Assembly (NCBI GenBank): GCA_977020255.1
Contig: CDROCS010000715.1
Span: forward strand, 558,001-622,000
DNA from: Obrimoposthia wandeli
Lineage: Eukaryota
Direction: 5' to 3'
DNA length: 64,000 bases
Shown here: positions 24 to 52,225 of the stretch, piece after piece
Position numbering within the stretch: position 1 is the first letter of the stretch
Layout of the letters: each line of letters begins with the position of its first letter
Program-made: the position numbers and the translations under genes
The notes under the pieces: model-generated
What the model saw: only the letters and a program-made list of their open reading frames with translations
Told to the model about the DNA's origin: nothing
The model's database searches: none

Positions 24-146
24 AGTAGTATGTGGATGTGTTTGGTCTAATCCACTCCCCGGGAGGCTAACACTGTCCTTTAAAACTGTGCATGTGTGTG
101 GAGTGAAATTTCATGCACGTGTGTGGAGTGAAAAAATCTATACATG
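24..146 (+). repeat. Terminal inverted repeat of Polinton A with two 25-bp sub-repeats
   Basis: AGT-repeat terminus. Units aaa(t/c)t(t/g)(c/t)(a/g)tgca(t/c)gtgtgtggagtg at 81-105 and 106-130, the same unit as at 26721-26820. Confidence 0.8.
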
Positions 147-595
147 TCCTGAAACGTGTATACACCTTTTAGCAGCACAAGAACAGTTTACTGGTTAAGG
201 TAGGGACATGATATTGGAAAATTAAGCGCATATGATACTTGAATTCTGTCAAAAGCGGTGACCCGTCGAGAAATATAAATACAGGGTCGAATTATTTGAA
301 TAATACGCTCTCATTGGTCGTTGAACTCAATCAACAAAATATTATGAAAATAGTACTATTTTCGAATAAAATATATTTTTATCCAATGACATTCTCGCAT
401 TCAAACGTAGTTAAAAAATTGAGAAAGGCCTATCAATTTTCAAATAAATGATTTGAACAAGACGCTCTCATTGGACGACAAAAATAGGATTAGTCTGATG
501 TTTGTGTATATAAGGAGACCTATTTTCATTATTTTTCATAAATCAAAATCAAAACCAAGAATGTATTTTTTAACAAGGTTGACCTAGACAAAGAT

Positions 596-2782
596 ATGGA
601 GGTTGAGTTGTATGGGATCTCTCTCCATTACAGCAGCGAAAGTCACCACCGTCGCAGTACATTGACTTACTTAGTCAAGACTCGTCGGAGGTGAGCGAAG
701 AAGAAGAAAACGAAGAAAAAGAAGCAGCAAGAGCGGAGCTGATAAAAGAAGAAGCTCCATTGGCCAGCTCAACTCCGAGAGAAGAACCAATGGGTGCGAG
801 GAGTGGAGTACAGATATCCCACTATAATGACATGACAAGTCAGAATTCGATTGAGAATTGGGAAGACTGTACTTCCTGATGGAGAACAGAAGCTCGTCCA
901 TAAACTTCGGCAGAAGCAGCAAGGAGATCATCCAATATCTTCGACAATTTTGAGACGGCAATCAAACTCCCCTGAAAAATGATCCCGCTGTCTCAGCCGA
1001 GATAGTCCTCGCACCGGACTCTGATGACGAGCTAATCAGTGATGAGGTATCGGCGGATCAGGAAGAGGATTTGACTCCATTCATCGATGAATGGATCCAG
1101 CCAAGTCACGGAGCCATTGATAATGCACCAACCGCAAATGAGTCAATGGTGTCAGAATTGGACGATGACGAGTGGCGGCTGTTCACGGATGAATAGGATG
1201 GTCTCTCTCCCACTGCTTCTCCAACTCCGGTAGCAGACAATACCGTGCCTGAACCATTCAGAAGGCCAGAATAAAGGCAACTAATGAGGTTAGACTATTC
1301 ATTTATTTCAAATGTTTTTAAATTTCATTTTCAGAAATTTTAATTCGATGTGGCAGCGTCGGTAACCATGACGGAGAGGCTGATAGAACTCCAATATTTG
1401 GCGAGTCAATGCAGCCAGGAGGTGCCAAGGAGTAAGCACCCGGATAATCTTAGCTACTCCGGATAATCTTAAGGTAAATTATTTTAAATGAGATAATAAT
1501 TTTAACTATTAACATAGGGAGCCGACTTGATGGAGGAAGTTCTGAAGGAGGCAACGCTCAAACTACCCGTGGATAGGAAGCAAGCCATGGTTAGGAAACC
1601 GCAAAGATATCGGTTGAAAACATCGACATTCCATCAGAAGAAGGCCCAGTTGGTGAAACAGCCAAAACTGTCTGTTATTGAGATAATTTATTTATATATT
1701 TAAATTTTATTGATGTTTCTTTGCAGGAACCTGCAACACTTATTGAAAAATGACTGAGAATGGCCACTACAATTCCATGGAGGTGGAAGCAGAAAGCAGT
1801 AGTATGCAAAACCAAACGCGTTAAAATGTGAAAACCAGTATTTTTCAGTTTACAAGGGTTTAAATGGAGCATCAGGATAAACTTTCTTATCCTATTATTG
1901 AGGTAAATTTAAAAAAAATGTAATGATATTTTTTTAAATAAATATTTTATAAAATGTTATTAATGTTTTTTATGCATGAACCGGTACAGATAACTGAGGA
2001 GACGTCGGGAGAAATTTATCCTTTCTGTGTAGACGGATAAAGCGAACAAAGGTGCAGAAGTCAAAGCGCTCCCGAACATATAGCACTTCAATGCTCAATT
2101 TTGCAGAGGCAGAGATTGGCCGACAGGATATTCTCCCATCCCCAGTTGACAACGGGCCAATTTATACGAGAAGATTCCAGTCTTTCCGATCGAGATTAGT
2201 CCGCATCCCAGTCAACGACATCTACAGGAGACTTCAATGGTACCGGCTCCATTAAGTATCAGCCAAAATTTGGCCAGAGCTTGGGCGACTGCTTCTCCAC
2301 TGCCAACAGTATCTACCAGCCAGAACTTGAAGATGGTCTGAGATGAAGCTGGATTGGACGAATTGCTAACAGAACTGGAGACCCCGCAACCGGCAATGCT
2401 TCCAGATTCACGAGGGCAGCATGATGCAGTCTCACGCCAGCTTCAGTGTGAGAAGGAGGAGAAAAAGAAAATAGCTTCGCGGAAGAAGAAACCTGCAAAA
2501 TCGACAACTTCTTCGACATGGTCATCTACATCGGCTGCACCTTCTCCCAAAAAATTGCGACAACTCCTGCCAAAACCTCAGGGAACGGCAATTGCTGCAC
2601 AACAACCCGTGCAGCCGAAAAAGAAACCAGGCCGACCAAAGAAGAAGGAGTCGGTGCCGCTTACTCTTATACCACTCAGTCGGAGGGATATCAATGATAA
2701 TGATCCCAATGATGACTTTGTGAAGTGTTTTATGAATAATATAATTCATAAAAATAATTGTACGTGTTTTGTTTTTATTTAA
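596..2782 (+). pseudogene. Multi-exon Polinton accessory gene A: acidic N-terminus, basic C-terminus with AT-hook-like KKKPGRPKKK
   Basis: GT-AG introns at 1289-1334 (46 bp), 1474-1517 (44 bp) and 1674-1726 (53 bp), plus a donor at 1903. Exons are GC-richer than introns. In-frame stops and a 19-bp frameshifting duplication near 1440. The last exon is homologous to 37392-37619. Start codon uncertain. Confidence 0.65.
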
Positions 2783-3009
2783 ATTTTTTTAATCTTTTAT
2801 TTCAAAAAGATAACTTTAAATTTACAGATTTTTTTACGAAATTTAGTTATATTAAAATGCAATAATAAATTATAGATTTTTAACAATATAAACTCTCATT
2901 TGATAAATAAAAATATATAATTTGGGTTTAGATTAAAAATATTTCAAATTTATATAAATAGGTTCAGATTTATTTACCTCTTCATTATTAAAAAAAGGAA
3001 TTTACTAAA

Positions 3010-3300
3010 TTGCAAAGTCTCGTGACGAAAATAGAAGAGAACATCAGAAGAAATGCAAAGAAAGGAGATATAAGAAAGAGGGTCCTGAATCAAAATTTGT
3101 ATGCTGCTGTCGTGGCCAAGAGGAATCGACAGATGAAGATTCAAGGCAGACAGTTAGCTGAGCGACGAAGGATCCCGGACTGGAATGGGAAGGTAGAATT
3201 ACAGCAAAAGCAACTGGCTGAAACAAGAAGAGTGGAGATGGAGGACAATCGCCGAGCTGCAAGAAAGAGAATTCTCTAGATCAAACCTGAAAAGGGTCCA
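3010..3300 (+). pseudogene. Basic coiled-coil Polinton protein B (unknown function)
   Basis: SLVTKIEENIRRN.KKGD.RKRVL.QN and MEDNRRAARKR are shared with the copy at 36775-37066. ATG->TTG and CAG->TAG relative to that copy. The upstream TATA region is conserved between the copies. Confidence 0.7.
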
Positions 3301-6300
3301 TCGACTAAAATTTTTTTTTGATTTTATTGGTTATTTATAGCGTTATATTTTACATAACCGAACTAAATATAAACCATTTTCTTTTCTTTCTTCTGAATAA
3401 CTGACCAAAGTAATATACTGAATGAAAGTTAAAAAAAATAATTTTAAAATAAAAAAATAAAAAAAACATTTGAAACTAACTTATTTTAGAATATTTTTTG
3501 AGAAATGAAATCCCTTTAAAATAAAGGTAGATTAATTTTTATGTAAATCAATTAATCAATCAATAACATTTTGTATTGATTGGTTCGTTTATTATTATTA
3601 TTTGTGGCGTGAGTTTCATTCTCTACTAATCTGGAGAAAGTCATTGTTAGAATTATTTTAAAAAGATACGATAAAACAAATTACAAGATTTGAGATTTAT
3701 AAACAATATGATTTTTCATAATTCTAGTGTATGAGAAAATATTATAATTAGGCTGTCATTTAATCAGTTGATTTTATTTCATCTTTCTGAATATATTCTT
3801 ATCAATTTTCAAACAGTTATTCTGAAATATTAACTTAAATATTTTGTTTATTTTCATGCGCTTGATATTTTATTTTATTAATTTACAATGTATATTTTTA
3901 AATAATTATTTTTCATATTGATTCATTTTTTAGAACCTCTATTACAGTAAATACAGATGAATTGAATAAATTTTAGAATTCTTTTATGTTTAAATTAAAT
4001 AATCCGTGAATTTGGATGTTTTAAAACGGTACAGTATTTCGTAGGTTTAAAAAATTCTGAAATTCACTAAAAAGTTTCTGAATAAATTAATTATATATCC
4101 TAAACTATTGGTCTAAATTATTGATGTCATTAATATGCAGAACAAGTGATAAGGAAATTATATCAAGAATACCGTGAAAAAACCAATGATATATCCAATA
4201 AATTCAAAAATAGGCCAATGAATTATTTCTATTACAAAAAAATACCCAAGTAAAAGTTAACCAGAAGATAAGAAAATATTTAATAAAATAAATGCTAAAA
4301 TAGCTCAAGAAAACGGTTTGTAAAAAAAAGAACTATTGAATTTATTTATTTTCAAAATGTGTGTTATGACTGCGGGTAACTTATTACACCTATCACATTA
4401 AACAGTTAGAAGAAACAATAAAGTTGAGAGACAAAAATAATACACATCCATTTTTATGGCAAAAATATTAGTAAAGATAAATTATTTGTTAAATAACTAC
4501 GAAAAACAATTTGAAGTCGTTTTAAATTTAGATTTTATTGTTAATGGTACGAGTAGATCAAATTCGGTCTAAGAGTATCTTGTTAAGTTGACAAAGTTAC
4601 TTGAATTTGTTTTGATACGTTTTCAGTAATTACGGGAAATAAAAGTGAATCTGCTATTGCATTAGAAAATATGATGCTTTACAAATATTTAGAAGTCGAT
4701 TGTCGGGGTCGTGTATTTGAATTATTTATGGGTTATGTTTTGAAGCAATATTTTATAAAGTAGAAACGCCCGATGTTTTGAGTTAATCATTAGGAAAAAA
4801 TGCATAAATACGTATTATAATTATTACAATATTTAAATCTGTAGTCAATATTGTACAGTGAATTACATTGATACAGATTGAATTAATTTAAACAATATTT
4901 TTGACATGGTGGAGAAAGCATCTAACTTTCATTCTTATTTGGAATATATAACATTGACTTAAGTTTTAATTAATAAAGGAGCAATCAAGTAGAATAAAAT
5001 ACAAGTACTTGCGAAGATTATATATTGTCTAGAATGAAATATGTTAAATTTTATATCGAAAACAAAATTTAAAAGATTTTATTTTATTTTATGGATACTT
5101 ACCATTTAGTATAAAAGCTTCACATAACAACAATGTGAAAGGAAATTATGTAAAATGTTAAATATCTGAATAAGATTAGTTCTGCAAATATTTCAATTTT
5201 CTGACTTCTTTTTAATTTCGACTGATCTTCTTTGCGGATGTTTTCACACTGTTTTAACCCATCCTTTATACATTTCTACACGACCTCATCAAGGTCTTAA
5301 TTTACTTTAATTTACTTAAATTTTTTTTCAATATTAAATTTATTTTAACCTTGGACTTTAAGGTAGAGTTTTTATTAAAAATAATAATAATTATTTATTT
5401 TATTTTTAGTTTCCTAATTCTAACAATATTACAATCAAGTTTCAGAAACAATGAATGACTAAGAATTTTAAAAAATTTTCAGAGTTGCAGTTGATATAAA
5501 TTTACGACAAAAATCAAATGATGAAAATTAAATTTTAAAGATGGTCAATATTTATATGAACCTTTTTTATAATTAAATTGCAATTGAAGAAAGAAAATGG
5601 TTCTTCCTGAAATTCTATACATTAGTTTGTCAGTAGCAATAAGAAAATCAAATAACATTAAAAAACAGAAAACACATCAAACTGCGGCTGTTTAGAAAAT
5701 ACAACTTAAACTTTTTTTATTTCGATTTTTTATATTGACAGTGTCTATATCCGATATATTTGACCTTGATTAAACAAATTTAAAAAAATCAAAACATAAT
5801 GCGTCTAAATTTTTTATTGATTTCTTTTTAACTTTTTAAAATACAAACTTTTCTTGTCAACATTATCTTTTAAGTTACCTTGGTAAAACACATGTAAATT
5901 CATATAAAAAACTTTTATAAAAAAGAACCTTCATTACTACTTTCACTACCCACCCATCATCGTAATCTCACTGCCCACTATTTAATTTCTTTACTAATAA
6001 TATTTTAATGTATTTAATTCTATTCCATTAACATTCTTCAACACTATGTGTGCTTATAAAAAATAAATGGTGCGTATTTAATTTATTTAATTTCGGTTCT
6101 ATTAACATTTTAAATCCGTTAAAAATATTTTGAGATAATGTTAAATACATAGATGATCTTATCAAAATCATACGTTTTTCTGTATTTTGTATTATTTATT
6201 TTAATTTCACATGTAGCTCCAAAACTAAAATTTTGAATTTTGAAATATTTTCATAATTTTTATATAGAAAATTCTTTATCTGAAATTATACAACTTCGAA

Positions 6301-6810: not shown

Positions 6811-7015
6811 TTAAAATATGTATGATATTAAAATAAATTCTGGAATTCACTTACACAACCAATGTTCCTTAATTTAAATAAAAACGGCCTTGTTTAAATT
6901 GTTTTGCAATCGATATAATTGTTAAATTAAAATATTAAACTGTAAATAATTTAAAATATCAAGTCTTATAATCGCATGCATTAGCAATGTATAAATCTCA
7001 GTAGTACGGTATTTT

Positions 7016-24400: not shown

Positions 24401-25392
24401 TTTTTATTTTTGATAACTTCATTTCATTTTTCATTTCAGAAAAGCGGAAGTCCTGGAGGATGAATCTTATAAGAAATGTTAACTTTTGTTTATCGTTGCG
24501 TGTCTCTTTTATATGATTTTTAATTGTTCTTTGATAAACTTGATACAGTCCAATAAAGTTTAACATTCAAGTTTTAATCTTAATTTACGTTTATTCTCCA
24601 CAGTAATACGAAACAATAAAAATGTATTTTCAGATAATGCTTTAATACACTGTCTAGACAAACTGTCGTGCAAGATATTTCAAAATGGTTAAGTTGCAAT
24701 TTAGAAATTTTGCGTAAGTTATATAAAAATTGAACATACTTTAAATATTTAGAATTAACAGTTAAAATTTATCAATAGTTTTAAGAAAGAAACCATAACA
24801 ATAAAATGTCAAAGTAGGAAAGTGATAAAAACATGCAACAGTCATCAAAAAATATTTATTTTAAAAGAAAATACCGTACTACTGAGATTTATACAATGCT
24901 AATGCATGCGATTATAAGACTTGATATTTTAAATTATTTACAGTTTAATATTTTAATTTAACAATTATATCGATTGCAAAACAATTTAAACAATGCGGTT
25001 TTTATTTAAATTAAGGAACATTGGTTGTGTAAGTGAATTCCAGAATTTATTTTAAGATCCTACATATTATAAAATTTTGCACACCACTTTGTGTGATACG
25101 CTAGAGCCTGGAACAGTGATGAAATATATGCAGTTTAAGAGCAACGATAACGACTGCGGATAGGTTAAGAAATTCTCGGGAAACTATAATTGTGATGGTA
25201 TATTTGAAATTTATGCTACGAATTTCGACATCAATTTACAGTACAAGAAAGTGTAACAATGTTGAAAAAAATCAAATAAACAACTGAAGACTTTACTATT
25301 TAGAAAATATGAAGAAAAATAGAAAACGTAAATCACTTTTGAGTAATAAATCATAAATTTATTAGATATTACCACTGCATGAAATATATTTT
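18434..25392 (-). repeat. Right arm of giant inverted repeat (about 6.96 kb)
   Basis: Reverse complement of 6491-13011, with an extra roughly 463-bp segment (about 21505-21967) absent from the left arm. Confidence 0.97.
18960..20170 (+). mobile_element. Decayed hAT transposase (GTF2IRD2/Spin-Buster-like), right-arm copy
   Basis: ISLSHQTV; SLAFSENTYISDSSQF (degenerate SLALDESTDISDTSQL); EYDDIVFFTNVRWISR; MKLILLERQLSKDIAQHF. Many stops and frameshifts. Confidence 0.85.
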
Positions 25393-26673: not shown

Positions 26674-26820
26674 ATTAGGTGGATGTGTCCGGTCTAATCC
26701 ACATCCCCCTCCCCCCTGACAAAAATCGTGCATATGTGTGGAGTGAAAATTCGTGCATGTGTGTGGAGTGAAATTTCGTGTATGTGTGTGAAGGGAAAAT
26801 TCGTGCATGTGTGTAGAGGA
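26674..26820 (+). repeat. Left TIR of Polinton B with four 25-bp tandem units
   Basis: Units start at 26721, 26746, 26771 and 26796 (aaaattcgtgcatgtgtgtggagtg consensus). Confidence 0.9.
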
Positions 26821-27091
26821 AAAAATTGAAAAAGCATCGAATAGGAGGGAGCGGGGGTCCCCCCATATTTTTTATTTTACTGGGAAATTTACCACGAAAG
26901 TGGTTAGAGAAGACCACGGGAATCCATATTGGACCCGGTGGCTTATCGCAGACGAGATTTCAAATATATTGCTACTATTTTTAAGAAAGATTACTACGTG
27001 TTAAATATTTAGGTCAGAGAGAAAAATAGATCTATTTAATTTAGAGGAGAAAAACAAAATACGAGTCAAAATTAGTCTTTCAAAACATTTA

Positions 27092-27553
27092 TTAAACATA
27101 AAACAACATAGTGGCTTCACTCAAAGTCCAGAGAGGCTGCATTTTCCCGTCATCAGCAAAATATCCATTTAGACGTATTGAGATATTCCATAGTTCTTCA
27201 TCTAGAATTAGAGCAATCAAATATCCTAGATCATCTTTAAAATCCAGACTGGGATCAGTTTCAAGCTGGAAACAATTTCCTTCATATACATAATCAGGAA
27301 TGTAAAATCCCAAAATATTTTTCAATTGATCAAAATCAGATGTTGTTAAAATTTCGATGAGATATTTATTCTCCACTTTTGATATTTTCACAGGATTCAT
27401 AACTCGTATAATTTGATGCTTCTTTAATATATTACATAGTTTTCCTTTTGAAATTCTCTCTGGATAATAAAAGTTTCCTACACATCTCTTATCCATTCTA
27501 AAATAAGGAAACTGATTAAAATCAATGTTTATAAAAAAATACATATAAGACAC
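27092..27553 (-). CDS. Polinton accessory protein, paralogue 1 (putative OB-fold ssDNA-binding-like)
   Basis: Open 153-aa ORF. Shares NPVxI, DFxxLK, FxDDxG and WxIxIRLxGY with 27656-28114. C-terminal IRLNGY...GK..PLWTL resembles viral T7-type SSB strands (inference). Confidence 0.5.
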   Translation of the reverse strand: MSYMYFFINIDFNQFPYFRMDKRCVGNFYYPERISKGKLCNILKKHQIIRVMNPVKISKVENKYLIEILTTSDFDQLKNILGFYIPDYVYEGNCFQLETDPSLDFKDDLGYLIALILDEELWNISIRLNGYFADDGKMQPLWTLSEATMLFYV

Positions 27554-27619
27554 AAATATTTAAAAAATAAAACTGATTATTAAATGAAAGAAACATAGTA
27601 AACCCGATTACAATTTATT

Positions 27620-28114
27620 ACACGCAAAAGTTAAAACATAGAATTATGAGCACGTTCAATTTTCCACATAGGCAACTTTGTCTCCTTTTTCATCTTTCTT
27701 GTAACCATAAAGTCGAATTGTTACAGTCCATTGCTTCTTTTTCGGAAACACATCATTATCAACATATCTTCCATAGTCATCTAGAAATGCTTCATCGGGT
27801 CCTCGGATATAAAATTCGTTCTTATTGAAAGTAAAATTCGGAACTGCCTTTTCAACTTTCTGTTTAAGATATTGAAAATCTGGTTTTTGAATATTTGATA
27901 GATAGTAGCTGAACTTTCTTCTTTCAATTGTCACAGGATTTACTAAAGCAATCAGTTGAGCCTTCTTCAAGAATCTGACTTTGTTTTTGAAATATTGTTT
28001 CACTTCTTCATACATATCCTTATCCGATTCTTCAAACATTTCTATATCTTCCTCATCGCTAAATACCCGTTGGCTATCATCCATCGTTGATAATTGTCTT
28101 TGATATGAATGCAT
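27620..28114 (-). pseudogene. Polinton accessory protein, paralogue 2 (acidic N-terminus; frameshift near C-terminus)
   Basis: 152-aa ORF. A frame change after GDK gives LPMWKIERAHNSMF, which aligns with QPLWTLSEATMLF of paralogue 1. Confidence 0.55.
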
Positions 28115-28363
28115 TTACTATGATTTGTCCTCCAATGACGCATTCTTTTATACTAATTTCTAACAAAGACATGAATCTCATTGGTTAATATAACTAAAGC
28201 ATTGAATTTGATTGGACTAAAACCATATTAAAAATCCAATTTTATTGGAAGAAATATATCATCCAATTATAATAGATTTGCAAGATAATTACAAGAAACG
28301 TGCAATAAAAAGGTAGGTTCAGACATATATAAAGAAGATTTTACAGAATACAATTTTAGTCTA

Positions 28364-28865
28364 ATGAAACTCGTAAATATAAATTATAAAGGTAGAACAG
28401 AAGATGATGTTTCGTACTTACCATTCAATGAATGGAAGCCGAGACAATATGTGGAAAAGTTTGACAATTTCACAGTTGTTATTTTTCCTACAGGTTAGTT
28501 TTTTTATTTTATTTTCATATTGAATTCTTTTAAGAAATTGTCGTGTTATGGGATGCAAAATATTAATGCTTGGGTTCAATTTACCATTTGTAATTCGAAT
28601 CACTGCAATACAATCAATCACATTTTCGGCTAATTTTGGGACACAGATAAATCTTTTTAAAACTGCAGAGAAAATGAAAGAAGAATGCATGTTTGAACCA
28701 GAAATCTTTCCTGCTCTCAGTTATTTGAAGTTTAAACCGCTATGTGTAAATATATTTTCCAGTGGTAAAGTTATGATATTGGGATTGAAAAATTTTGATT
28801 ATCCAGACATTGTTGATTTGATTTTAGAAAATATATCTTATTACATGTTATTATCTTTTTTCTAA
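28364..28865 (+). pseudogene. TATA-binding-protein (TBP)-like gene with one 40-bp intron (acceptor mutated)
   Basis: Exon 28364-28493 ends VVIFPT|G. Intron gttagt... 28494-28533 ends in AA instead of AG. Exon 2 gives GNCRVMGCK...FEPEIFPAL...VNIFSSGKVMILGLK, i.e. both TBP repeats (IFxxGKxxxxGxK; YEPExFPxL). Confidence 0.8.
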
Positions 28866-28893
28866 ACAAACCCGTTTAAACTTATTGTTTCAA

Positions 28894-29165
28894 ATGAATA
28901 ATACTATAAATAGAGACAATGGAGTGAATCGACTTGCCGACAAATTTTTTCTGGAAAAATTAGGGTTAAAGAAATTTTATCAGAATTAAATAATAATGAT
29001 ATAACAAGAGATAACATTGAAATATTGGTTAGATCACACGTTATTCGAGAAATTAGAAATCGTACACAAATAAATAAAATTATAGCCAAATCATCATTAA
29101 TTAATTTTTGTATTTCATCTACAATAGCTCTAACATTGTACATTTCAATAAGGAAACTTCTATGA
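28894..29165 (+). pseudogene. Small frameshifted ORF with C-terminal hydrophobic segment
   Basis: MNNTINRDNG... then a frameshift to ...SSLINFCISSTIALTLYISIRKLL*. It lies between the TBP-like and ATPase genes on the same strand. Confidence 0.3.
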
Positions 29166-29199
29166 TAATATAAACAATATTAAAAATGAAAGAGTATAT

Positions 29200-29834
29200 G
29201 CAATGGAGCTAAATAATAATGCTGTATTTCAAATAGTTGGTCCCAGTGGAAGTATGTAAATTGTTGCAAAATGAATCTCTTTTCAAATCTAGTTTCAAAA
29301 ATATTTATTGACATCATGGTGGAGAAGGGTAAAGCGGATTAACCAAAACAGAAGTTTGCAAGTTGAAGGGAATACAATTTATTGAAGGATTTGATGCAAA
29401 TTGGTGTGAAAGATTGAAAAAAGAAGATGTAATAATAATTGATGATTTGTATCAGGAAGCTAACAAGGAATCAGACTTTAATAATTTATTTACGAAGATT
29501 GCAAGACATCGTGAAGTAACAGTTATATTTATCACTCAAAATCTTTTTCACCAAGGAGGTCACCATAGAACTAGAAATCTTAATGTGCATTACTTAGATT
29601 TTATTTAAAAATCCTAGAGATCAAACAGTTGTTGATTTCGTGGCCAGACAGGCATTTCCCCAAAATAAGAACTTTTTAGTTGATTCATTCCACGATGCTG
29701 CTAAACAAGCACATGGGTATATATTTATTGACTTTACACAAGCTTGCCCAGATGATTTACGTGTTTTAACCGACATATTTAGTTCTAAGGGAGTAACTGT
29801 TTATAAACAAATAGAGAACAATCATAAAAGATAA
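29200..29834 (+). pseudogene. Polinton genome-packaging ATPase (A32/FtsK-HerA-like)
   Basis: VFQIVGPSGS (Walker A with GKT deleted), VIIIDDL (Walker B), LFTKIARHREVTVIFITQNLF, FKNPRD, GYIFIDF. Frameshifted. Confidence 0.92.
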
Positions 29835-29841
29835 ATTTATA

Positions 29842-29982
29842 ATGCCTTTTAAGAAGTTGATAGTAAAACGTAAAGCAAAGCCTAAGAAATCAAAAAAAAT
29901 AATCATTAAGAAAAAAGAAGTAAAAAAATTAATCAAATCTGTAGTTAGAAATAAAAAAAAACTTAAATGGCTTCGAATATAA
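29842..29982 (+). CDS. 46-aa lysine-rich micro-protein (candidate virion core/DNA-condensing protein)
   Basis: MPFKKLIVKRKAKPKKSKKIIIKKKEVKKLIKSVVRNKKKLKWLRI*. Intact ATG-to-stop ORF within the morphogenesis gene run, too short for the supplied ORF track. Confidence 0.5.
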   Translation: MPFKKLIVKRKAKPKKSKKIIIKKKEVKKLIKSVVRNKKKLKWLRI

Positions 29983-30013
29983 AAAATATTTAAATTGAAC
30001 CTTTTTTATTAAA

Positions 30014-30335
30014 ATGAAGAAAATACAAAGAAGCATACCCTATTCTAAAGCTTTAGTCAAAGCCTCTTCACATAAGAGAATGATTATTCTTAAAGCATTT
30101 CCATCTTTTGTTGTAGATGATTTATTGGAAGTTTTGTATAATATAATTTATGGTCGAGTAAAAGTTGGAAAACGGAAAAATTGTATTAAAGAAATATAGC
30201 AATAACTCTTCTAGATATTGCTAATGAAAAGAGTAAAATAAAGAAACGAAATATTATTCTTTGACATAATGGTGGTTTCATAGGGTCTGTTATTCCAGTT
30301 GTTGCTTCAATTATCAGTAGTATTATAGCTGCGAC
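30014..30335 (+). pseudogene. Conserved small Polinton protein ending in GGF(I) plus amphipathic helix
   Basis: ...DLLEVLYNIIYGRV..., then after stop/frameshift KKRNIIL*HNGGFIGSVIPVVASIISSIIAA, typical of the small Polinton gene upstream of integrase. Confidence 0.6.
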
Positions 30336-31080
30336 ACGTACATAAACAATTATTTCAAAAATCAGCTAAAGATATGGGTGCTAACTCTTCTTTACCTAAA
30401 TTTAAACTTTCTATATATTCAAATTGTTGTAATGGAGAAGATATAGTTCAATCCAAATGGATTTGATGGAGATGATCCCATATTCTTCAATTAATAAGGG
30501 ATATCGATATATTTTAACATGTATTGATGTGTTTAGCAGGTTTGCTCTTGCAATTCCAGTTAAAGCAAAGTCTTCAATAGCTATGCTTGAAGCCATTAAA
30601 GAAATATTAAAAGAGGACATTCCACAAAATGTCCAAACTGATTTAGGAAAAGTATTTTATAATAAGCTAGTTCAATCTTTATTTAAACAAAATAATATAA
30701 ATCACTACTCTGTGTTTTCACTGTATAAAGCAGCAGTAGTAGAAAGATTTAATCGTACTTTAAGAGATCGAATAAAAAGTATTTCACAAAAGAAGGAAAT
30801 AAAAAATGGATCCAAGTTTTACCTAAAATAATACATGCCTATAATCACTCGGAACATAGAAGTCTCATGGGAATGAGACCCGTTGATGTTACTAATAAAA
30901 ATTCTATGGATATTTGGATGAACAGGAATAAAAAAGAAAATATTAAAAAAGCTAAATATAAGAAAAACGAATATGTTCGAATTTCGAAAATTAGCTCTAC
31001 TCCATTTATTAAAAGCTTTGATCAGAATTAGAGCGATGAAATATTTTGTTTAAGTAAAATTGATCAAAAGAGTAATCCAA
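30330..31080 (+). pseudogene. Polinton retroviral-like (DDE) integrase
   Basis: QMDLMEM, YILTCIDVFSRFALAIPVK, VQTDLGKVF, AAVVERFNRTLR, then WIQVLPKII.AYNHS.HRSL.GMRPVDV and EYVRISK in a shifted frame. Confidence 0.95.
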
Positions 31081-31082
31081 AA

Positions 31083-31804
31083 ATGAGAAGACTAAAACAT
31101 TTTTTAAAACCTATTCAAATTATATTTGGATCTGATAGAGAAGCTCTTCAATTCGGTTTTGACAGTGGACATGTAGTAGGTATGAAGAGATCTGATATAG
31201 CCTCATCTAAAATGTTTAAAAATGTTCCTAGTAGAGTAGTAAGAGTGTTGTTAGTTGAAACGAGACCAAAGACTGTAGTGGAACTGAAAATGTTTTCAAA
31301 AGATTATAAATTAGATAGTGAAGTGAATTTCTGTAAATTAATACAGAAGGAATGTTAAAAGATGGTAAAATAACGTTTACAGTAAAGAGCAATATAATAC
31401 GAGTTTTATTTGATGATAAACTCGTTAAAAACCTTGGTTTAAACATAAATACCTTTGAAACCCATACAATAAAAACCAAAAAAGCTAAAAATAAGGCAAA
31501 ACTTTTAAATGCTGTTAATCATTTATATATTTATACTAATTTAATAGAACCAACGCTTGTAGGAGGACAGCGAGTTCCACTTTTGAGAACAATATGGATA
31601 TCTAAAAATGAAACTAGAGATGGGGACGCTGTCGGTATGTGTATAGATCAACCAATGTATATTCCAGTTTCTCTCTTTTCTATAAACAATATTGAAGTAA
31701 ATATTAGAGATGATTCCGGACAACTAATAGATTTCACGTACGGGGCCAAGACAAGTTTAACAATACATTTAAGAAAACAAAATGGCGAATCCAGCAATAA
31801 TTGA
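31083..31804 (+). pseudogene. Polinton minor capsid (penton) protein, 5'-truncated and frameshifted
   Basis: LYIYTNLIEPTLVGGQRVPLLRTI, YIPV...INNIEVNIRDDSGQLIDF...LTIHLRK. Confidence 0.85.
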
Positions 31805-32155
31805 AGCTTATAGTCAAAGCCAACAAGGTGGAGAATTACCATATTTTGTTGGTAAACAATATGGATCTGGCTGGCTTAGAACATTAGGTAGATTTGCCTT
31901 TCCTCTTTTAAAGAGACTCGGGCGATTTATATCAAAATTAGGAAAGGACAATAAACTAAGGACAATAAACTAATACCAACTTTTAAGAAGCATGCGCTTG
32001 ATGAACTTGATAATGTTTTACCTGAAGTTGCTAATTTGATTAGAAAATGTAAATCAAATGAAAGCCAAGGAGGTAGTGGATTTAAAAGTAAAAAGAAGCA
32101 AAAAATCAATATAAACAAACGTAAGAATGTTGAAGGAACAATATTTGCAAAATAA
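31782..32155 (+). pseudogene. Polinton PZ-like protein with QGG/GSG motifs and amphipathic helix
   Basis: QQGGELPYFVGKQYGSGWLRTLGRFAFPLLKRLG, lying between penton and major capsid. Homologue at about 51010-51351. Confidence 0.75.
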
Positions 32156-32159
32156 GTTG

Positions 32160-32915
32160 CGCCAAAACTGAATTATGTATTTTTGATAAACCGCTTCCAC
32201 ATGTTGTTGTAGATAATGCTTCCTTTGAAGAAATATTTCTAGTTAACTCAGTTTCAGGAACCACTTTAACCGATTTAGAATTTAATATTAATGGTTCCAA
32301 TAGTGAGTATTTAGATTTGAATGATTTTCAAATAAAAGTATTAAATCGGGATGGTATTAATTTAGATGAAAATGCAGATATAACACCTGTAAATTATCTC
32401 TTTAATTCTTTATTTAGTGATGCCATTGTTACTCTTAATAATGTCAAAATTGAAGGTGGAAATTCTTCCTATGCTCATAAAGCTTTGATTGAAAGTATTT
32501 TGAACTATAGTACTGATACTCAAAATACTAATTTGGCAACCATTGGTTATGATAAAACGGTCGCAACTCGCAAAAATGGATTGCGGGTTCTAAAGCTTAC
32601 AAAATGTGTGGGTCTTTGAGATTGAATTTTTTTGAACAACCGAAATATTTAATTTCCGGTGTTAATGTACATCTTCGTTTGAAACGTAAGAAATGGAATT
32701 TTTCTTTGATAAGCACAGACATTCTAAAACCTAGACTTGATATTTTGGATGCAAAATTGTATGTCCGAAGAGTTAAAACCGAGCAATCAGTTTTAATGGC
32801 ACATAATATAGGAATGGAAAAAAACAATGCTTGTTATCCTATTAGAGAAACTAAACTTATATCCTATTCTTTAGGAACGGGTACACAAGCTTTTAATAAG
32901 GATCACGTTTTTTAG
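32160..32915 (+). pseudogene. Polinton major capsid protein (double jelly-roll), C-terminal half deleted
   Basis: LEFNINGSNSEYLDLND, TPVNYLFNSLFSD, YAHKALIESILNY, QPKYLISGVNVHLRLKR, LYVRRVK, YPIRETK. Confidence 0.9.
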
Positions 32916-35653
32916 AATTCTTCTCAATATAGTCTTTAAACACAAAGTTTTGACTGAAGCTTATAGCACGATGAATTCGAGTAACTTTTGCTCCCAACTT
33001 TAAGTAGAATTGAAGAAGCCGCCAATGCACAACATAATTCAACTTGTCTTCATGTGTTAACAATAATTTCTTAACCTTTGAATTAGGTGGGCATTGATGA
33101 ACAGGCGCTACTGGAAGATCATCTAATTTATCATGCACATTGGAAGGGATTGTTAAGTCATCCTCAACCAAATAGCCGATGTCTGATGAAACTGTATCGA
33201 CAGTAGCTAAATATGTCATAAACTTATTCAACTCTTCCTCATCATAAACCCACTTAAAGTTGGCATGAGATAGAGGTTGAGTAAGCGCCCACCCATACAA
33301 ATTAATAATGTCGATGAACAGAATATCCGTGCATTGATTTTTGACAACATGATGTTTGTTGACAAAGGTCATTCCACCGCGTATACCATAATCATACATT
33401 TGATACATCGCGAGATCTTGCAGTAACTCGATATCAATTTTAAGAGTTTTTATTGCTGTTGCCAATGAAAGACCAGGTAAAATAAAGAAATGCATGCAGT
33501 CTAGCCCATCTTCTGCTAAAGATTTTACATGAAAGGACTCAAAAACATCAGCTAAAAGATAAATATCTAACTTCATATAATAAAGCATATATTTTAGAAG
33601 ATTTCGACAATTATTCGCCTAAAATGTACGGGCCTCATTATAGTCTTGAAGACTTACACCCTCAAATTCAGTTATGAGAGGGATTTCTGTAGTATTTTCT
33701 AAATCTGCAAAGGTTTTCGCAAATTTATACTGAAAAATCCCTTTATCGTTAACCGAAGCTGGGAACATTGACTGTGTGATTGGCCATGCATTTAAAGATC
33801 CCGTTAAATTTTTTAAAGACCCGCTCAAAAACTGCAGAGAATCTATGAATCTTAAACTACAGAATTCAGTATATGCAGTTAAAGATAAATATTTCTCTGA
33901 ATTTTGAGGTATATATGAAATTTCCCAAGAGTTTATATTTGAATACATTAATACTCAAGTTATTAAGGTGTTAAAATCTTGAAATCGCAGTTATTTTAAC
34001 AGGAAAATTTATTCCATGATACTGCAATTCATTTTAAAAAGGGGTATATTTACTGACACGCTCTCTATGCTCAGTAATTACATCCCTTTTGAGGATGACC
34101 AATACGCTATACAAAAAGCAAAAGTTATCACTGTATTGTACGTTAACAATGTAACGTGAAAGTTGAAGAGATCTAGGTGAAGGAATGTATGAACTCCCCG
34201 AAAGATATATCATGTCAGTGAACTTTGTTAGAACAAAGCTAACATCGTGAATTCTATCTAGAATCCATCCACTACTTAACTCGCTATAATTAGCAATTTT
34301 TTCATCTAGGTTTCTTCCAATTTCAGTTACAAAATTATCATAGAAAACAGTTGCTTTATGTAAAATTACCTAAGTTTTAGTCTCCTCATTGACATTTTTA
34401 AACTGCACTGTTGCACAAAATTGAACTTTAGCCTGTCCTAATTTAGTCACTTCTGATTTTAAAAGACTTACAATATTTGAATCTTTACCTACGTTTAATA
34501 AAATTTCATTTCCTAATGGCACCTTAACAATAACATATTTATTATTTAGGTGATACTCTATAGTAACACCGTTTCTCTACATTTTTTGGTGTGACCTTAT
34601 TAAGAAATTGGCCACACCTCTTTCTTCCTACAGTCGCTGACAAACGTCCCCCTAATTGAACGGAAGACAACTATTTATATTAAATGTTGATGTTGGTGCT
34701 GCCGATGTTGAGGCAATCGCAGCTGATGTGGACGATGCTGCTGTAGTAGATGATGCTGTAGTAGATGCTGATGTACTAAATGCTACCGCAGATGATGAGA
34801 CAGTAGATGCTGCATTTGAAATAGGAGTAGCAGACATTGTCGACGAAGAAGTGGCTGTTGTAGAGGATGATGCTGCTGAAATAAATATATTAAAAAATAT
34901 ATATATATATTTTTTTAATTATTACCTCTAAGACGTGCAAACATCGATGTAGGTACTCGCGATGGGGGAGGCATAGATGTCATAGCGGACGACGGCTGTT
35001 TCACGGTATTTCCTGAATAAAAAAAAATATATATAATTACAATTTTAAAAAATATTCAGAAAAATAATAATAAAAAAGTACTTAATGAAGGCAATTCAAC
35101 TGTAGCTGGTTGGAAGTCATCTTCATTGATGGAATCCATCCAGCTGTCATCTGTGAACTCGACGAAATCGGATTCCTCGATGGTCTTCAACCAGCTGTTG
35201 TCGCTCCACTGCTCCATCTCAAAATCTTCTTGGGAGATGCCGTTCATCCACTCATTGTTATTCATTTGAGTGGATGGGGCAGAATCAGGAGACGGGAGAC
35301 CAATTGCAGGACCGTAAACGGGTTGAATCACTGCAACTGGAATTGGAGAATGTGTTGGAGCGGCCTGCAAATCGCGCACCAATTGCACAATATCCCTCTT
35401 CTTGTTGTTGGTCGTGAAACAGGATAGATGAGCTCGATGTTCACCGAAGAAGTCTCGAAACTCCTTCTCCTCCATTGTTCTGCAGAAGGGGCAGACGAAG
35501 AATCCAGACGAATAGTAGCCGGACATTATCTCCATACAGGACTCTCCTCCATGCGGAGCCGAAGCACCACAATAGGCTGGAAAGAGGATACATGTATTCT
35601 AAAAAATAAATATTAATAATGAAATAATAAGTATAGATTCTTACCATAGTCAT
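32893..35653 (-). pseudogene. Protein-primed DNA polymerase B with spliced N-terminal extension; model join(35653-35645, 35598-35082, 35012-34926, 34875-~32905)
   Basis: GT-AG introns of 46, 69 and 50 bp join in frame. Exons encode a CPFC-x14-H-x2-H-x2-C motif, acidic Trp repeats and a S/T/A linker. The frame runs (through TAG stops) into SSGWILDRI, GSSYIP, FCFLYSVL, FIDSLQFL, YMKLDIYLLADVFE, YGIRGG and DIINLYGWA. About 1 kb is deleted internally and the C-terminus is lost. Confidence 0.9.
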
Positions 35654-35871
35654 TATTTCAAATAGTCGGGGATTTAAATAAAGAAAGTGTTTGCTTATAT
35701 ACTAAAATTTATGCTCACATGCTCTTTTCCTATTGGATGAAAATATTGAATTGAAACTGAGAAGGATTGTTTATCTATTATTGGTTGACAATATTATTTT
35801 TTATTCCTCCAATTAAAAGGCTTATTTGTAATTGGATGAAAATTTTGTAAATTTTGAATTAGAAGAATTGT

Positions 35872-36361
35872 TTATCTACATGTCAAGTAATAATAAGATA
35901 GACTTAAACATTTTTTATATGCGCAATGGTCACCATGATCACGATATGGACAGCAAATATTTCGTGGAATTTTTAATAGATGATCACGTGAAATATTTAA
36001 AGTATTCAATCTCAAATTTGGAAAATATTTCTTTTAAGTTTTATACTTTTTGCCATCCATTTCATATAAAACATAAAAAATTCCATTTTCAATATCAAAA
36101 TTAGATTTTATTTTATCGAAAATACATATTTCACAAAAAGCCTTATGTCCTTCTTTCCATTTTAATAAATGAAAGTAATTAGTTAGATATAAATTAATAA
36201 ATTTTTTCTTATAATCTAAACTTCTAAATGGGATATTTATTTGAAATGTGAAACGCAAAGGATAAAAAAACGTCGCATATATCCATAATACATAATTCTT
36301 TTATAATATAATCACCATTTTTGTTAACGAAAGTCTCAAAATCTATGATATATTCCTGCAT
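35872..36361 (-). pseudogene. DEDD/DnaQ-like exonuclease-type Polinton accessory protein
   Basis: MQEYIIDFETFVNKNGDYIIKELCIMD (ExoI-like IDxE), YLTNYFHLLKWKEG, C-terminal CPYRDHGDHCAYKKC. One homopolymer frameshift and one stop. Confidence 0.55.
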
Positions 36362-36449
36362 AATTACCCAAATTTGTAGCAAATCCCTTTGTTTATAACG
36401 AAAAAAATCATTAATCAAAATTTTATTAAAATAACAAAGTACTCAGGAT

Positions 36450-36672
36450 TCAGTCTTTCATGTTAAAATTGGTATATATTGTCAATTCTCCTATGAATAT
36501 TAAAATAAATTATATTAAATATAAACATACCTAAATATTTCGAAATTAAATTACATATTTTATCTCCTACAATTTCTGGAGTATCATTTACTGAAAAGTA
36601 ATTTTTTTTATAATCTTCCATTAAATCTGGAGATAAATTTATGTATAATTTATTCCGATTTTTATTATCCAT
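36450..36672 (-). CDS. Small spliced Polinton gene (60 aa), 40-bp intron 36530-36491
   Basis: tag|gtatgt donor and catag acceptor give an in-frame ...KICNLISKYL-G-ELTIYTNFNMKD*. TATA-like tatatataa lies just upstream. Confidence 0.55.
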
Positions 36673-36774
36673 TTAACAAAAAACATTATATATAAATTTG
36701 TTTATATTTAGACAAATATGTAACATAATCAATAAAGACAAAATAATATACAAAAAATTTATTCTTTTGTAGAA

Positions 36775-37066
36775 GGACCCTCTTCCGGTTTAATCTGGAG
36801 GAATCTCTTTCTTGCTGCTCGCCGATTATCCTCCATCTCTTCTATTCTTTTTTCATCCACCTTCATTTTTTACATTTCTATCTCCTTATTCCACTCCACG
36901 ATTCGTTGTCGTTCTGCTAGCCGCCTATCTTGTATCTCCACCCGGCGATTCCACTCGGTCGCGACAGCAGCATACTAATTTTGTTTGAGGACCCTCTTTC
37001 TTAAGTCTCCTTTCTTCTCATTTCTTCTGATGTTCTCTTCTATCTTCGTTACCAGACTCTTCATTT
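36775..37066 (-). pseudogene. Basic coiled-coil Polinton protein B (second copy)
   Basis: MKSLVTKIEENIRRNEKKGDLRKRVLKQN*Y...MEDNRRAARKRFLQIKPEEGPS, homologous to 3010-3300. Confidence 0.75.
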
Positions 37067-37391
37067 TAATGAATTCCATTATTTAATTATGAAGAGGTTA
37101 ATAAATTTGAACCTATATATATATAAATGTAAGTTACTTTTAATCCAATAACAGGCAATTAAATGAAATATTTATCAAATTAGAGTTTAATAAATAATTG
37201 CATTTATATTTAAACCAAAAAAATTTAAATGATTCCTTATTAATCCAATCACATTTGAATAAGTTAACTATTTTTTCATCTTGATATTTTAATAAACTTA
37301 AAGATGGTATTTTAATATTGCTAAATTTAAAATTTAACATTTTTTTAAAATAAATATTAAAAAGAAAACACATAAAATTAATTTTTATAAA

Positions 37392-37630
37392 TTATATTTT
37401 TAAAAATTTTACAAAGTTATCATTGAGATCATCCTCATCGAAATCCCTCCGACTGAGTATTATTGGAGAAAGCGGTACTGGCTTCTTCTTCTTTGGCCGG
37501 CCCGGTTTCTTTTTCAGCTTCACCGGTTGTTGTACAGCAATTGTCTTTTCCTCAGTTTTTGACAATAGTTGCCGCAACTTTTTGGGAGGAGGTGCAGCCG
37601 ATGTTGATGGCCCCGACATAGAAGCAGTGG
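37392..37630 (-). pseudogene. Last exon of accessory gene A (AT-hook-like) in Polinton B
   Basis: STSAAP.PKKLRQLL, KKKPGRPKKK and LSRRD are shared with 2354-2782. Upstream exons are replaced by the 350-bp repeat. Confidence 0.75.
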
Positions 37631-37633
37631 GCG

Positions 37634-37984
37634 GTGTTTCTAAAAAAAACTAGTCAATTAACATTTTTGTTTGTAAATATTTTATATTACTATATTTTAT
37701 ATATTCTATATTATTTGAATGATGACTGAATGTTGTCAAGAACACAGAGATATTATAGATGTTTTTTCTTTGCTTGTGAATAATCAATATATTAAATAAT
37801 ATTTATTTTACTTCTCTAACTTTATTTTTGTGATTTTAATGAAATGCGACATTGGAAGACTATAAACATAATAGCATATTGACTAAAAACATAAAAAACT
37901 GATTTTTCTTATATTACAACGTCAGAGATCTGCATTTATTTATCCCCATAGGATTGTTGGGATCAGGACTTAATTGAAATTAAT
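37634..37984 (+). repeat. About 350-bp direct repeat, copy 1 (inside Polinton B arm)
   Basis: About 95% identical by eye to 41792-42140, from gtgtttctaaaaaaa to aattgaaattaat. Confidence 0.92.
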
Positions 37985-38089
37985 CAGACGGTGGGGGGGA
38001 AAACTAGAATATAGTCCGCATCCCAAGGCGCGAACGGTAGGGGTTGAGCTTCGCCCCGGTAGGGGCGAAACATTTGTTGGGGTATGGAG

Positions 38090-38182
38090 ACACACGTGCA
38101 CGAAATTTCACTCCACACACATACACGATTTTAAATGACAGGGGGGAGGGGGTGTGGATTAGACCGGACACATCCACCTACT
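38090..38182 (-). repeat. Right TIR of Polinton B
   Basis: Reverse complement AGTAGGTGGATGTGTCCGGTCTAATCCACACCCCCTCCCCCCTGTC followed by about two 25-bp units. Confidence 0.92.
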
Positions 38183-38754: not shown

Positions 38755-39453
38755 TCAGCGCTGAACTTTCCTGTAGTACTTCGCCTTCTCCGTGGAACAC
38801 AATGCGTGCCACTTCTTGGACAGTTGCTTAACAAACTTGCACCACGACATGCCGGAGCGACTTTGGCTGTTGGACTTTACAAAGGCTGCATAAGGTGACA
38901 TTTTGTAGCGTGCACACTTACACTTCTTACAGGCCGCCTTGTCGCCGCAGACTGCCTCACAGCGACGTAATCGCTTGGCCTTCTTCTTACAACCACACAT
39001 ACCGGGTCGGCGTTTAGTTCGCTTAGTGCTGGATGAACGTCTACCCCGGTTGGAACCACACCGGGAACTCTTCGATTTACGCCGGCGGCGCATGGACCGA
39101 CACCGAGAGACTTTGCGAGGCCGTTTGCATTTCTTGTGACACCCAGGAGACCTTTTGGAGTCTGTGGGGGTGCCACCGCCGCTGAACATGGAGAGGAGTG
39201 GGCAGAAGTTGTTGTTGGCTGCCGGCACATTATCCGCGGACAGAGACCGGATGTTGCTACCGTTGCTGGCCCTACAAACGTTGACACTACCACCACCACC
39301 GGAATTGTTAACGGACGATGGCAGCTTTTCCTTCAGTGTCTGATAGTCGGTCCAGCTGGATGTATCGCGACCCAACAAATCCACCTTACCGCACTTCATT
39401 AAATACGCGTCCATTTCATTCTTCTTACACTGGTCTTGGTCGTAACCTATCAT
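38755..39453 (-). CDS. Arg/Lys/Cys-rich protein with C-terminal HMG-box (protamine-like candidate)
   Basis: Intact 232-aa GC-rich ORF. Central RSMRRRRKSKSSRCGSNRGRRSSSTKRTKRR block with many Cys. C-terminal MSPYAAFVK...LSKKWHALCSTEKAKY fits the HMG-box helix pattern. Confidence 0.75.
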   Translation of the reverse strand: MIGYDQDQCKKNEMDAYLMKCGKVDLLGRDTSSWTDYQTLKEKLPSSVNNSGGGGSVNVCRASNGSNIRSLSADNVPAANNNFCPLLSMFSGGGTPTDSKRSPGCHKKCKRPRKVSRCRSMRRRRKSKSSRCGSNRGRRSSSTKRTKRRPGMCGCKKKAKRLRRCEAVCGDKAACKKCKCARYKMSPYAAFVKSNSQSRSGMSWCKFVKQLSKKWHALCSTEKAKYYRKVQR

Positions 39454-40369
39454 GTTATTATGCTGCTACTTGCCGTCGCAGGGATCCGTTGTCAGAGAGT
39501 TTCAAGTTATCGATTTTTTATTGATCGACGATTAGATTCATTCAATACATTTCAATTGGTGAAGTGTCTAACAAACAAATGTCTGAAAATGAAAATCTGT
39601 ATCGATTACTACTACTATTGTAACTGACTTTCATGACCAAACAGTGCTAAAGATTCAAAATATAGATAGTTTCTAACATAAAAAGTTATAATAGGACGTA
39701 TAACTTTGTTAATGATTTTAATTTTATATAAACTTTATACCATAGACAAATATAAGATGACTGGATTTACAAGGGACTAATCCTGGACAATATTTTCTAT
39801 TATTAATCATTTTAAATTGTAGGTTAATAAAATTTAATTGACAAATACCTGTTTAAAAATTGGTAAATATATTCTTAAAAGAGAAAAAGTTATAAAAACG
39901 AGTAGAGTATGCATTATTAAAAATTATATTCTTTTTTAAGTTATTGAAACATGTAAATATAAATAGGTTAAATGTAATGTTGAGTTTGAACATAAAATAA
40001 ACTACTTTGAAATTTACGATATTTAAAAATAAAGTGTAACACAAATTAATATATAATTCCGAATAATTAAAATATTATTAACTTAAATTTTGAATACCAT
40101 TGAACCTACATAAAGCAGTTATAATTGACGGAGAGCTTCCCAGAAAAGAAGAAAATAGAATATGGAGTTCCTTAGTATTTCTTTTTAGACTTAATTTTTT
40201 ATTTTTTGCAAGAATTTATTTGACAAATTTTGAATTTAGTATCATTTATATGTTGATTATTGATTATATGTAGATTTATATTGGCTGAGATTGTGAATGT
40301 AATTAACTGAATTTAAATTTATTGGAACCAAAAGCCCACAATCGGTACAGTGCAAATAGACGATGACAG

Positions 40370-41791: not shown

Positions 41792-42140
41792 GTGTTTCTA
41801 AAAAAATCCAGTCAAGTAACATTTTTGTTTGTAAATATTTTATATTACTATATTCTATGTATTCTATATTATTTGAATGATGACTGAATGTTGTCGAGAA
41901 CACAGAAATATTATAGATGTTTTTTCTTTGCTTGTGAATAATCAATGTATTAAATAATATTTATTTTACTTCTCAATTTTTTTTTGTGATTTTAATGAAA
42001 TGCGACATTTGAAGACTATAAACATAATAGCATATTGACTAAAAACATAAAAAACTGATTTTTCTTATATTACAACGTCAGAGATCTGCATTTATTTACC
42101 CCCATAGGATTGTTGGGATCAGGACTTAATTGAAATTAAT
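41792..42140 (+). repeat. About 350-bp direct repeat, copy 2
   Basis: Matches 37634-37984. Confidence 0.92.
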
Positions 42141-42218
42141 TAGAACTGTAATAAACTCATATAAACTGACATTTTTTAAAATCTGAAATTCCTGCAATAG
42201 AGAGTAATTATCAGTTTA

Positions 42219-51353: not shown

Positions 51354-51960
51354 ATGATAACTGCATATGGTAAATCTGAATTGTATTTGTTTGATAGATC
51401 AGCACCTCAAATTGTAGTTGAGAATGGATGCTTTGAAGATATTTATCCTATTAATACAATTAATACAAAACTATCTGCAATTGAATTTAAAATTTCAGGT
51501 TCTGATGTAGAATATCTTGATTTGAATGATACATTGTTACATATAAAATAAAATTCGTTAAAAAGGAGGGTACACTACTAAGTGAAGCTGATAATATTAC
51601 ACCAAGTAATTTAATTTTTCACAAACTATTTAAAAACTTGAAAGTTTTATTGAATTCTGAGAAAATAGAAAGTAGTTATGATATGTATGTTGTAAACTCA
51701 ATTATAGAAACCATTCTTAATTATGGTACGATACTAAAGAAAGATTCCTTTCATGTATTGGATATGACTCTGATGCAGATGAACGTAAAAAGTGAATTTC
51801 TCGATCATGTAAGTTTGAAATATGTGATTCAATTCTTCAGATTTCTTTGGGCAGCTTAAATATATTTTACCAGGTATCAATGAGATTAAAATTTATAATT
51901 AATAATCCTCAATTAAGCCTTACATCTAAAAATGTAGAAGCTAGAATTCAGTCAATTTTC
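51354..51960 (+). pseudogene. Major capsid protein N-terminal part, Polinton C
   Basis: MITAYGKSELYLFD...QIVVENGCFEDIYP...IEFKISGSDVEYLDLNDT, ITPSNLIFHKLF, IIETILNY. Confidence 0.85.
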
Positions 51961-52225
51961 AATCAATCAAACAAGAAAAAGTTTCCAATCAGACAGAATC
52001 AAATGACCATTTAAACAGATTCAATCAAACATATTCAGACATAAGTTTGTAATATATTCAGGTAGAATCAAACAGAAATTACCACCCAAACAGATTCAGT
52101 CAAACATATTCAGACATAATCAAATTACCATTCAAACAGAAGTTATTAAACATAAGTTGGTAATATAATTCAAACAGAAATTACCATTCAAACAGATTCA
52201 ATCAACATAATCATTCAATCATTTG
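51960..52225 (+). repeat. Degenerate minisatellite (aaacagattcaatcaaacat-like units) interrupting Polinton C
   Basis: Recurrent aaacaga(tt/aa), tcaaacata, ttaccattcaaacaga and cagacataa words. Confidence 0.75.

Follow-up and report, generated by a model that had tools for sequence, protein, structure and literature searches.

Animal Polintons, Mavericks and adintoviruses are about 16 kb long, are bounded by terminal inverted repeats (TIRs) and 6-bp duplications, and encode a pPolB polymerase, an rve integrase, an ATPase, an adenain-type protease and capsid proteins. These features recur, the capsid assignment being putative, in the family of the element described here, a Polinton at positions 26674-38182 of a 64,000-nt stretch of Obrimoposthia wandeli DNA (hereafter the window; assembly GCA_977020255.1, contig CDROCS010000715.1, positions 558,001-622,000). 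The core genes of Polintons are typically described as intronless; this is a customary description and not a formal criterion, and the element departs from it. Its family quite probably carries short, host-type introns in its pPolB, protease, TBP-like and acidic-protein genes, which the spliceosome likely removes and which appear to have been gained early in a propagating clade.

Animal Polintons and adintoviruses have been described by Starrett (2021; PMC8502044) and by Barreat and Katzourakis (2021; PMC8097293), and the latter reports vertebrate elements with eight intronless open reading frames (ORFs). Unlike these vertebrate Mavericks, the present element has introns in pPolB and the protease, along with TBP-like, SSB-like and Cys/His-domain genes. 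Its ends read AGTAGG, as against the (AGT)2 or (AG)3 motifs reported for animal Polintons. In nematode Mavericks, as described by Widen et al. (10.1101/2022.07.12.499685), core genes are intronless and intron-bearing cargo lies near a terminus, whereas the introns of the present element sit in core genes. Dinoflagellate polinton-like elements carry spliceosomal-type introns that are reported to be mostly recent transposon insertions made after integration (PMC11957031). The introns considered here, in contrast, are mutually unrelated and occupy positions common to several families. Adenoviruses have nuclear, linear double-stranded DNA genomes, encode pPolB and adenain, and produce both polymerase and protease from spliced RNA. 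The element differs from them in having an integrase, single introns of host size in place of long, alternatively spliced units, and an SSB fold of the T7 type. In the literature searched, Repbase and Kapitonov and Jurka 2006 apart, neither conserved spliceosomal introns in a Polinton protease or pPolB nor a gp2.5-type SSB in a Polinton was found; the available parts of PMC10748475, PMC6431247, PMC12220804 and two 2026 preprints contain nothing on spliceosomal introns. Prior annotation of the protease and pPolB joins may exist in Repbase or in Kapitonov and Jurka 2006.

The element is a true Polinton (Maverick). It has suffered deletions and decay, and belongs to a family present in high copy number in an animal genome of 1.35 Gb. 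TIRs were found at 26674 and 38182, in agreement with the description that first drew attention to the element (the original prediction). Gathering genomic copies by the TIR gave 3024 first-look candidates, 40 of which were scored; pieces from the interior of the element have matches of 84-97% at many loci. The window copy is 11.5 kb long as compared with ~15.4-15.9 kb for full-length sisters, against which it lacks segments of ~170, 515, 1900 and 820 bp. Duplications of 6 bp flank four sisters (L019, L025, L035 and L037); none is present at the window copy or at several other two-ended stretches. Because the median difference between copies is 3.4% in the left arm and whole ORFs survive in few of them, the family appears to have spread recently and to be mostly decayed. 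The predicted Polinton core was recovered in part. The ATPase (Pox_A32, E 1.5e-6 in a sister), the rve integrase (E 1e-9) and pPolB (PF03175, E 6e-10 in the window copy and 4e-15 in family D) matched known families, while the penton, PZ-like and major capsid genes, which had no Pfam or PDB sequence match, were assigned by position and between-family similarity only. Conserved ORFs of 410 and 350 aa stand at the places expected for the double jelly-roll major and single jelly-roll minor capsid proteins, without a Pfam or PDB sequence match.

All five putative introns of the predicted sizes (40, 40, 46, 50 and 69 nt) are present in the window copy. They were compared with 30 sister stretches of 20 kb picked from the best matches, in counts that include some inverted duplicates from one locus. 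GT and AG were both kept in 26/30 stretches for the 40-nt intron of the TBP-like gene, 20/22 for the 46-nt intron, 14/17 for the 69-nt intron, 19/20 for the 50-nt intron and 12/14 for the 40-nt intron of a small gene. In-frame read-through was possible in 2 of the 103 sister rows pooled over the five introns, one each at the 69-nt and 50-nt introns and none at the other three. Purifying selection acts on the exons in the spliced frame only: the ratio of non-synonymous to synonymous shared variants (pN/pS) was 0.23 and 0.34 in pPolB exons 2 and 3 and 0.15-0.47 in five right-arm exons, as compared with 0.99-2.46 (pPolB exons 2 and 3) and 0.58-3.25 (overall) in other frames. Two further intron-like motifs (37690-37640 and 37899-37860) were rejected, both lying inside a foreign segment.

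The 46-, 69- and 50-nt introns do not belong to an accessory gene; they lie in the 5' part of the core pPolB gene, a part that includes a Cys/His domain. One sister copy has an ORF of 713 codons that stays open from intron 3 into the exonuclease domain, and a single ORF encodes both the Cys/His domain and the polymerase in families B, D and E. Exon lengths fit the intron phases in 10/11 rows; in family D, too, an ATG is immediately followed by an intron, comparable to pPolB intron 1. Identification of the Cys/His domain as a RING finger was rejected, as searches gave it no family support. Alpha and Beta adintoviruses are told apart by PolB clade and N-terminal TP-vOTU domains; in the present family an Endonuclease VII-like insert was seen.

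The TBP-like gene, predicted as such, matches PF00352; one repeat scores E 2.4e-12 and the first repeat is shortened. Six single-ORF database homologues align straight across its intron, with exons 1 and 2 meeting exactly, and in the metagenomic Polinton L082 the corresponding position holds a 40-nt intron of the same phase and unrelated sequence. The host's TBP gene, which is animal-like, carries a 47-nt intron elsewhere, a single example that fits the claim of host-like intron size; because it has none at the site of the TBP-like intron, the latter was apparently not inherited from this host gene. One copy (L097) has an exact exon-exon junction beside an intron remnant, which hints at microhomology-driven intron loss. 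At L089, L092 and L093 the host TBP gene is present in two inverted copies, and intronless TBP-related host genes also occur. In L082 an ORF with a RING-like C-terminus (1660-2170) lies between the TBP-like and ATPase genes. In PMC8502044, a figure showing non-animal MELD viruses marks one gene as TBP-like.

The intron of the adenain-type protease gene is, as read from the sequence, the most widely shared of the putative introns and is our most useful result. The gene is present in sisters directly 3' of the major capsid gene; it was removed from the window copy by the ~1.9-kb deletion, which also took the 3' part of the major capsid gene and the 3' end of pPolB. In sisters the protease gains an in-frame start only if 42 nt of intron, beginning after the fifth base, are spliced out, so that the intron parts the start codon, in a first exon of five bases, from the catalytic exon. 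In family A both intron ends were kept in 20/22 rows and an in-frame stop in 22/22 (rows include the reference copy). The position is common to families B, C and D, in which intron sequences differ and measure 37-42 nt; in family C the intron was found in 27/30 loci and an in-frame ATG upstream in 0/30. The metagenomic L082 contig ends within the same intron donor. Among database proteins the sister ORF has 967 homologues, many with PF00770. The best 120 of these comprise 28 whose N-termini look like read-through (with the donor peptide as well in 10), 58 with canonical starts, 18 with short starts and 16 not classable; the read-through type accounts for 27 of the top 59 and 1 of the lower 61. 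At least 28 of these 120 closest proteases thus look mis-started. In a quick tree (117 columns, no bootstrap; 13/120 homologues shorter than 95 aa left out), all 31 signature rows fell in one 56-row branch together with families A-C (SH-aLRT 90). A viral contig collection yielded four weak protease matches and no relatives of the TBP-like gene or the major capsid. The claim that the virion module lacks introns is contradicted by this gene.

The four introns predicted in a separate, diverged right arm of the family (596-2782) are all there, in a Ser/Pro-rich acidic gene whose five exons each comprise whole codons and are purified in frame. Both ends were kept in 13/14, 7/15 (with a shifted acceptor in five rows), 17/17 and 8/10 rows, reference copy included. 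The AT-hook protein of the original prediction exists as an ORF and proved to be the last of these five exons, not a separate gene.

Two SSB-like paralogues had been proposed and were borne out at the level of fold. Six metagenomic homologues and members in other families of the genome were found, and family searches gave no sequence-level match. A single-sequence fold (pLDDT 50) was discarded; a model of a sister copy from a 14-row alignment reached pLDDT 89. Its top four matches among 48161 chains were DUF2815, T7 gp2.5, Enc34 SSB and ASFV CP312R (Z 7.8, 7.8, 7.2 and 6.7; next best 5.0), with an rmsd of 2.8-4.5 over 105-131 residues. The model thus suggests the same OB-fold variant as in T7 gp2.5, Enc34 and ASFV CP312R, at 8-12% identity. 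Against BFVD it scored E 1.6e-5, with 25 viral models at E <= 0.001, many of them giant-virus look-alikes; Foldseek against PDB gave no match at E 0.001, and atlas searches gave no usable match.

Several observations weigh against an intron-bearing Polinton of this kind. A motif scan returned 8 intron candidates as compared with a shuffle mean of 3.6 and a maximum of 11; because motif counts in this DNA are at chance level, the case for the introns rests on homology, frame and selection. Counts behind pN/pS are small throughout, and neither the low-complexity start of pPolB exon 4 (0.93) nor a penton piece (1.2) gives a purifying signal. The small-gene intron is conserved and has no homology support. 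Most fetched copies are broken. The TBP-like intron is absent in three of four metagenomic loci (L081, L083 and L084) and in families B and E, so that its gain or loss appears patchy. Seven canonical-start rows fall inside the signature branch of the protease tree, and the 28 database signatures are regular-expression calls, inferred at the protein level without DNA. The SSB matches have Z-scores below 8, and a common fold in a model is no proof of function. With these points taken into account, we still consider it probable that the pPolB, TBP-like, acidic-protein and (in sisters) protease introns are genuine and lineage-old.

The introns could instead have been inserted after integration in the manner of introners, or have arrived with captured host cargo genes. 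Such cases are published for dinoflagellates (PMC11957031) and nematodes (10.1101/2022.07.12.499685), and the five-exon acidic gene could be cargo. We regard this explanation as improbable. The intron positions are common to copies, to families at ~55-60% protein identity and to a metagenomic contig; no pair among seven introns is more alike than shuffles, for which a common introner origin was rejected; the host TBP gene offers no source for the TBP-like intron; and pPolB and the protease are core genes.

Marginally less probable still is the regulatory design put forward originally, in which an early module is spliced and a late virion module is not. In sisters the ATPase, integrase, penton, PZ-like and major capsid genes indeed each form a continuous ORF in which no intron was seen, and most introns lie in pPolB and accessory genes. 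The best-conserved intron, however, belongs to the maturation protease directly after the major capsid gene; since it lies in the virion module, the strict division is contradicted. The core pPolB gene has three introns, the SSB-like and DEDD-like genes on the replication side are intronless, and in family B the TBP-like gene is intronless and the protease spliced. The proposal of an intron-bearing, nucleus-adapted lineage therefore survives without its early/late split, and the likeliest reading of the introns is as passengers that the element tolerates and selection keeps functional, rather than as a switch. Least probable, and very unlikely, is that the AT-rich gaps arose by decay or faulty assembly, or that read-through or starts further downstream bypass them: the window copy is heavily decayed, four TBP-like copies have no stop across the intron region and gene callers find downstream starts for the 18 short-start proteases, but in those four copies intron remnants persist or the donor is gone, read-through is as rare as stated above, selection is seen only in the spliced frame, and homologues are collinear across the TBP-like intron.

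Features of the element, its neighbouring right arm and the foreign segment, in window coordinates.
Feature	Position	Strand	Remarks
Diverged right arm of the family	27..3309	+	separate; five-exon acidic/AT-hook gene and coiled-coil gene
Sister-arm introns	1289-1334, 1474-1517, 1683-1726, 1903-1977	+	third with donor lost, fourth with acceptor lost
Left TIR	26674..26830	+	25-bp subrepeats
SSB-like paralogue 1	27092..27496	-	aligns with paralogue 2 and metagenomic homologues
SSB-like paralogue 2	27656..28114	-	predicted T7 gp2.5/Enc34/ASFV CP312R-type OB fold; C-terminus frameshifted in window copy
TBP-like gene, two exons	28364..28865	+	PF00352; collinear with intronless homologues
TBP-like intron, 40 nt, phase 1	28494..28533	+	acceptor lost in window copy
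Small ORF	28894..29165	+	frameshifted
Packaging ATPase	29203..29834	+	broken; uninterrupted ORF in sisters, where no intron was seen
K-rich micro-protein	29842..29982	+	found in L082 as well; in family B fused to the following ORF
Basic core-like protein	30014..30347	+	C-terminal GG site and hydrophobic tail; broken
rve integrase	30432..31085	+	two internal deletions
Penton-like gene	31090..31804	+	5' part deleted; assigned by position, no family match
PZ-like gene	31782..32155	+	conserved in families B, C and L082
Major capsid gene	32152..32912	+	3' part deleted
pPolB gene, four exons	32902..35653	-	3-codon, Cys/His-domain, short linker, long (into polymerase); broken in window copy
pPolB intron 3, 50 nt, phase 1	34876..34925	-	
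pPolB intron 2, 69 nt, phase 1	35013..35081	-	
pPolB intron 1, 46 nt, phase 0	35599..35644	-	
DEDD-like ORF	35872..36361	-	C-terminal Cys/His motif; intronless; broken; nuclease label unconfirmed
Small gene, ~60 codons	36450..36672	-	40-nt intron candidate 36530-36491; weakest of the five
Coiled-coil-like protein	36762..37079	-	two stops in window copy
Last exon of five-exon acidic gene, remnant	37392..37628	-	AT-hook-like motif
Foreign segment	37629..38089	.	in place of ~2.5 kb of right arm; 96% repeat at 41792-42144
Right TIR	38090..38182	-	no target-site duplication against left end

As predicted, real ORFs encode the coiled-coil and K-rich proteins; in the coiled-coil gene the shared pN/pS is 0.09 in frame, as compared with 2.0 and 2.8 in the other frames. 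DEDD exonucleases are recognised by three Exo motifs and an RNase H-like fold; the DEDD-like ORF, which is shared by three families, has the single conserved motif DxE and found no match in family searches; an ORF on the opposite strand (35832-36104, +) was rejected as its antisense. The basic core-like protein is presumably pX-like, and the PZ-like label is likewise presumptive. From window position 30374 onward (+), overlapping the integrase start, runs a conserved micro-ORF that begins Met-Gly and has a Cys-Cys pair; it is present in families A, B and L082, and its product is possibly myristoylated. Snap-back copies, in which the left arm is followed by an inverted left arm, were seen (L011/L012 and L025/L026); because L025 has a flanking 6-bp duplication, such defective forms seem to have been mobilised. 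The genome holds at least four further Polinton families (L061-L080, L051, L018 and L065), which differ in gene order and are often nested in one another, and in which TBP-like and SSB-like genes recur. The accessory genes had been described as the lineage's own kit; the TBP-like and SSB-like genes and the Cys/His-pPolB fusion also occur in sister families with an intronless TBP-like gene. Elsewhere in the window lie a second, diverged Polinton remnant with major capsid and pPolB pieces (51369-53936, +; 32-57% identity), a giant inverted repeat (6491-13011 / 18434-25392) with arms of ~6.5 kb, 97-100% complementary and without an ORF >= 140 aa, and, adjoining the element, a 236-codon Arg/Lys/Ser/Cys-rich ORF (38758-39465, -) with a weak C-terminal HMG-box match (E 0.007).

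The intron positions are common to distant relatives, and host splicing is likely a requirement of the lineage. Nuclear transcription of the element would be carried out by RNA polymerase II of the host, whose spliceosome likely removes the introns. The spliced pPolB, with its extra N-terminal Cys/His domain, would then copy the linear genome from its ends by protein-primed strand displacement, a step drawn from the known biology of pPolB elements (10.1101/2024.03.18.585575), likely helped by the two modelled T7-gp2.5-type SSB proteins. The integrase inserts new copies with the 6-bp duplications seen in sisters. Protease synthesis likely has to await splicing, because a first exon of five bases keeps the start codon apart from the rest of the gene. 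That the TBP-like protein modulates transcription from TATA-type promoters of the element is an even bet. A bolder reading, which we advance tentatively and think rather unlikely as a whole, is that one ancient intron at the protease start is the hallmark of a widespread clade of animal-type Polintons, with virion maturation dependent on host splicing and possibly regulated by it, and that with a TBP mimic and giant-virus/T7-type SSBs the clade leads a nuclear, spliced lifestyle parallel to that of adenoviruses.

'Intact' Polintons are defined by continuous ORFs and their core genes described as intronless; with conserved introns in the protease and pPolB, surveys for continuous ORFs would therefore truncate or miss these genes, and the prediction that ORF-only annotation mis-calls this lineage holds, its spliced genes being missed or mis-started. 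Intron positions held in common also offer a rare character for tree-building in fast-evolving elements. The T7-type SSB and TBP-like genes may add replication and transcription helpers with giant-virus counterparts. The introns would imply passage through nuclear, spliced transcription. If an ancient protease-intron clade does exist, ORF-based surveys would have mis-annotated a nuclear, spliced lifestyle.

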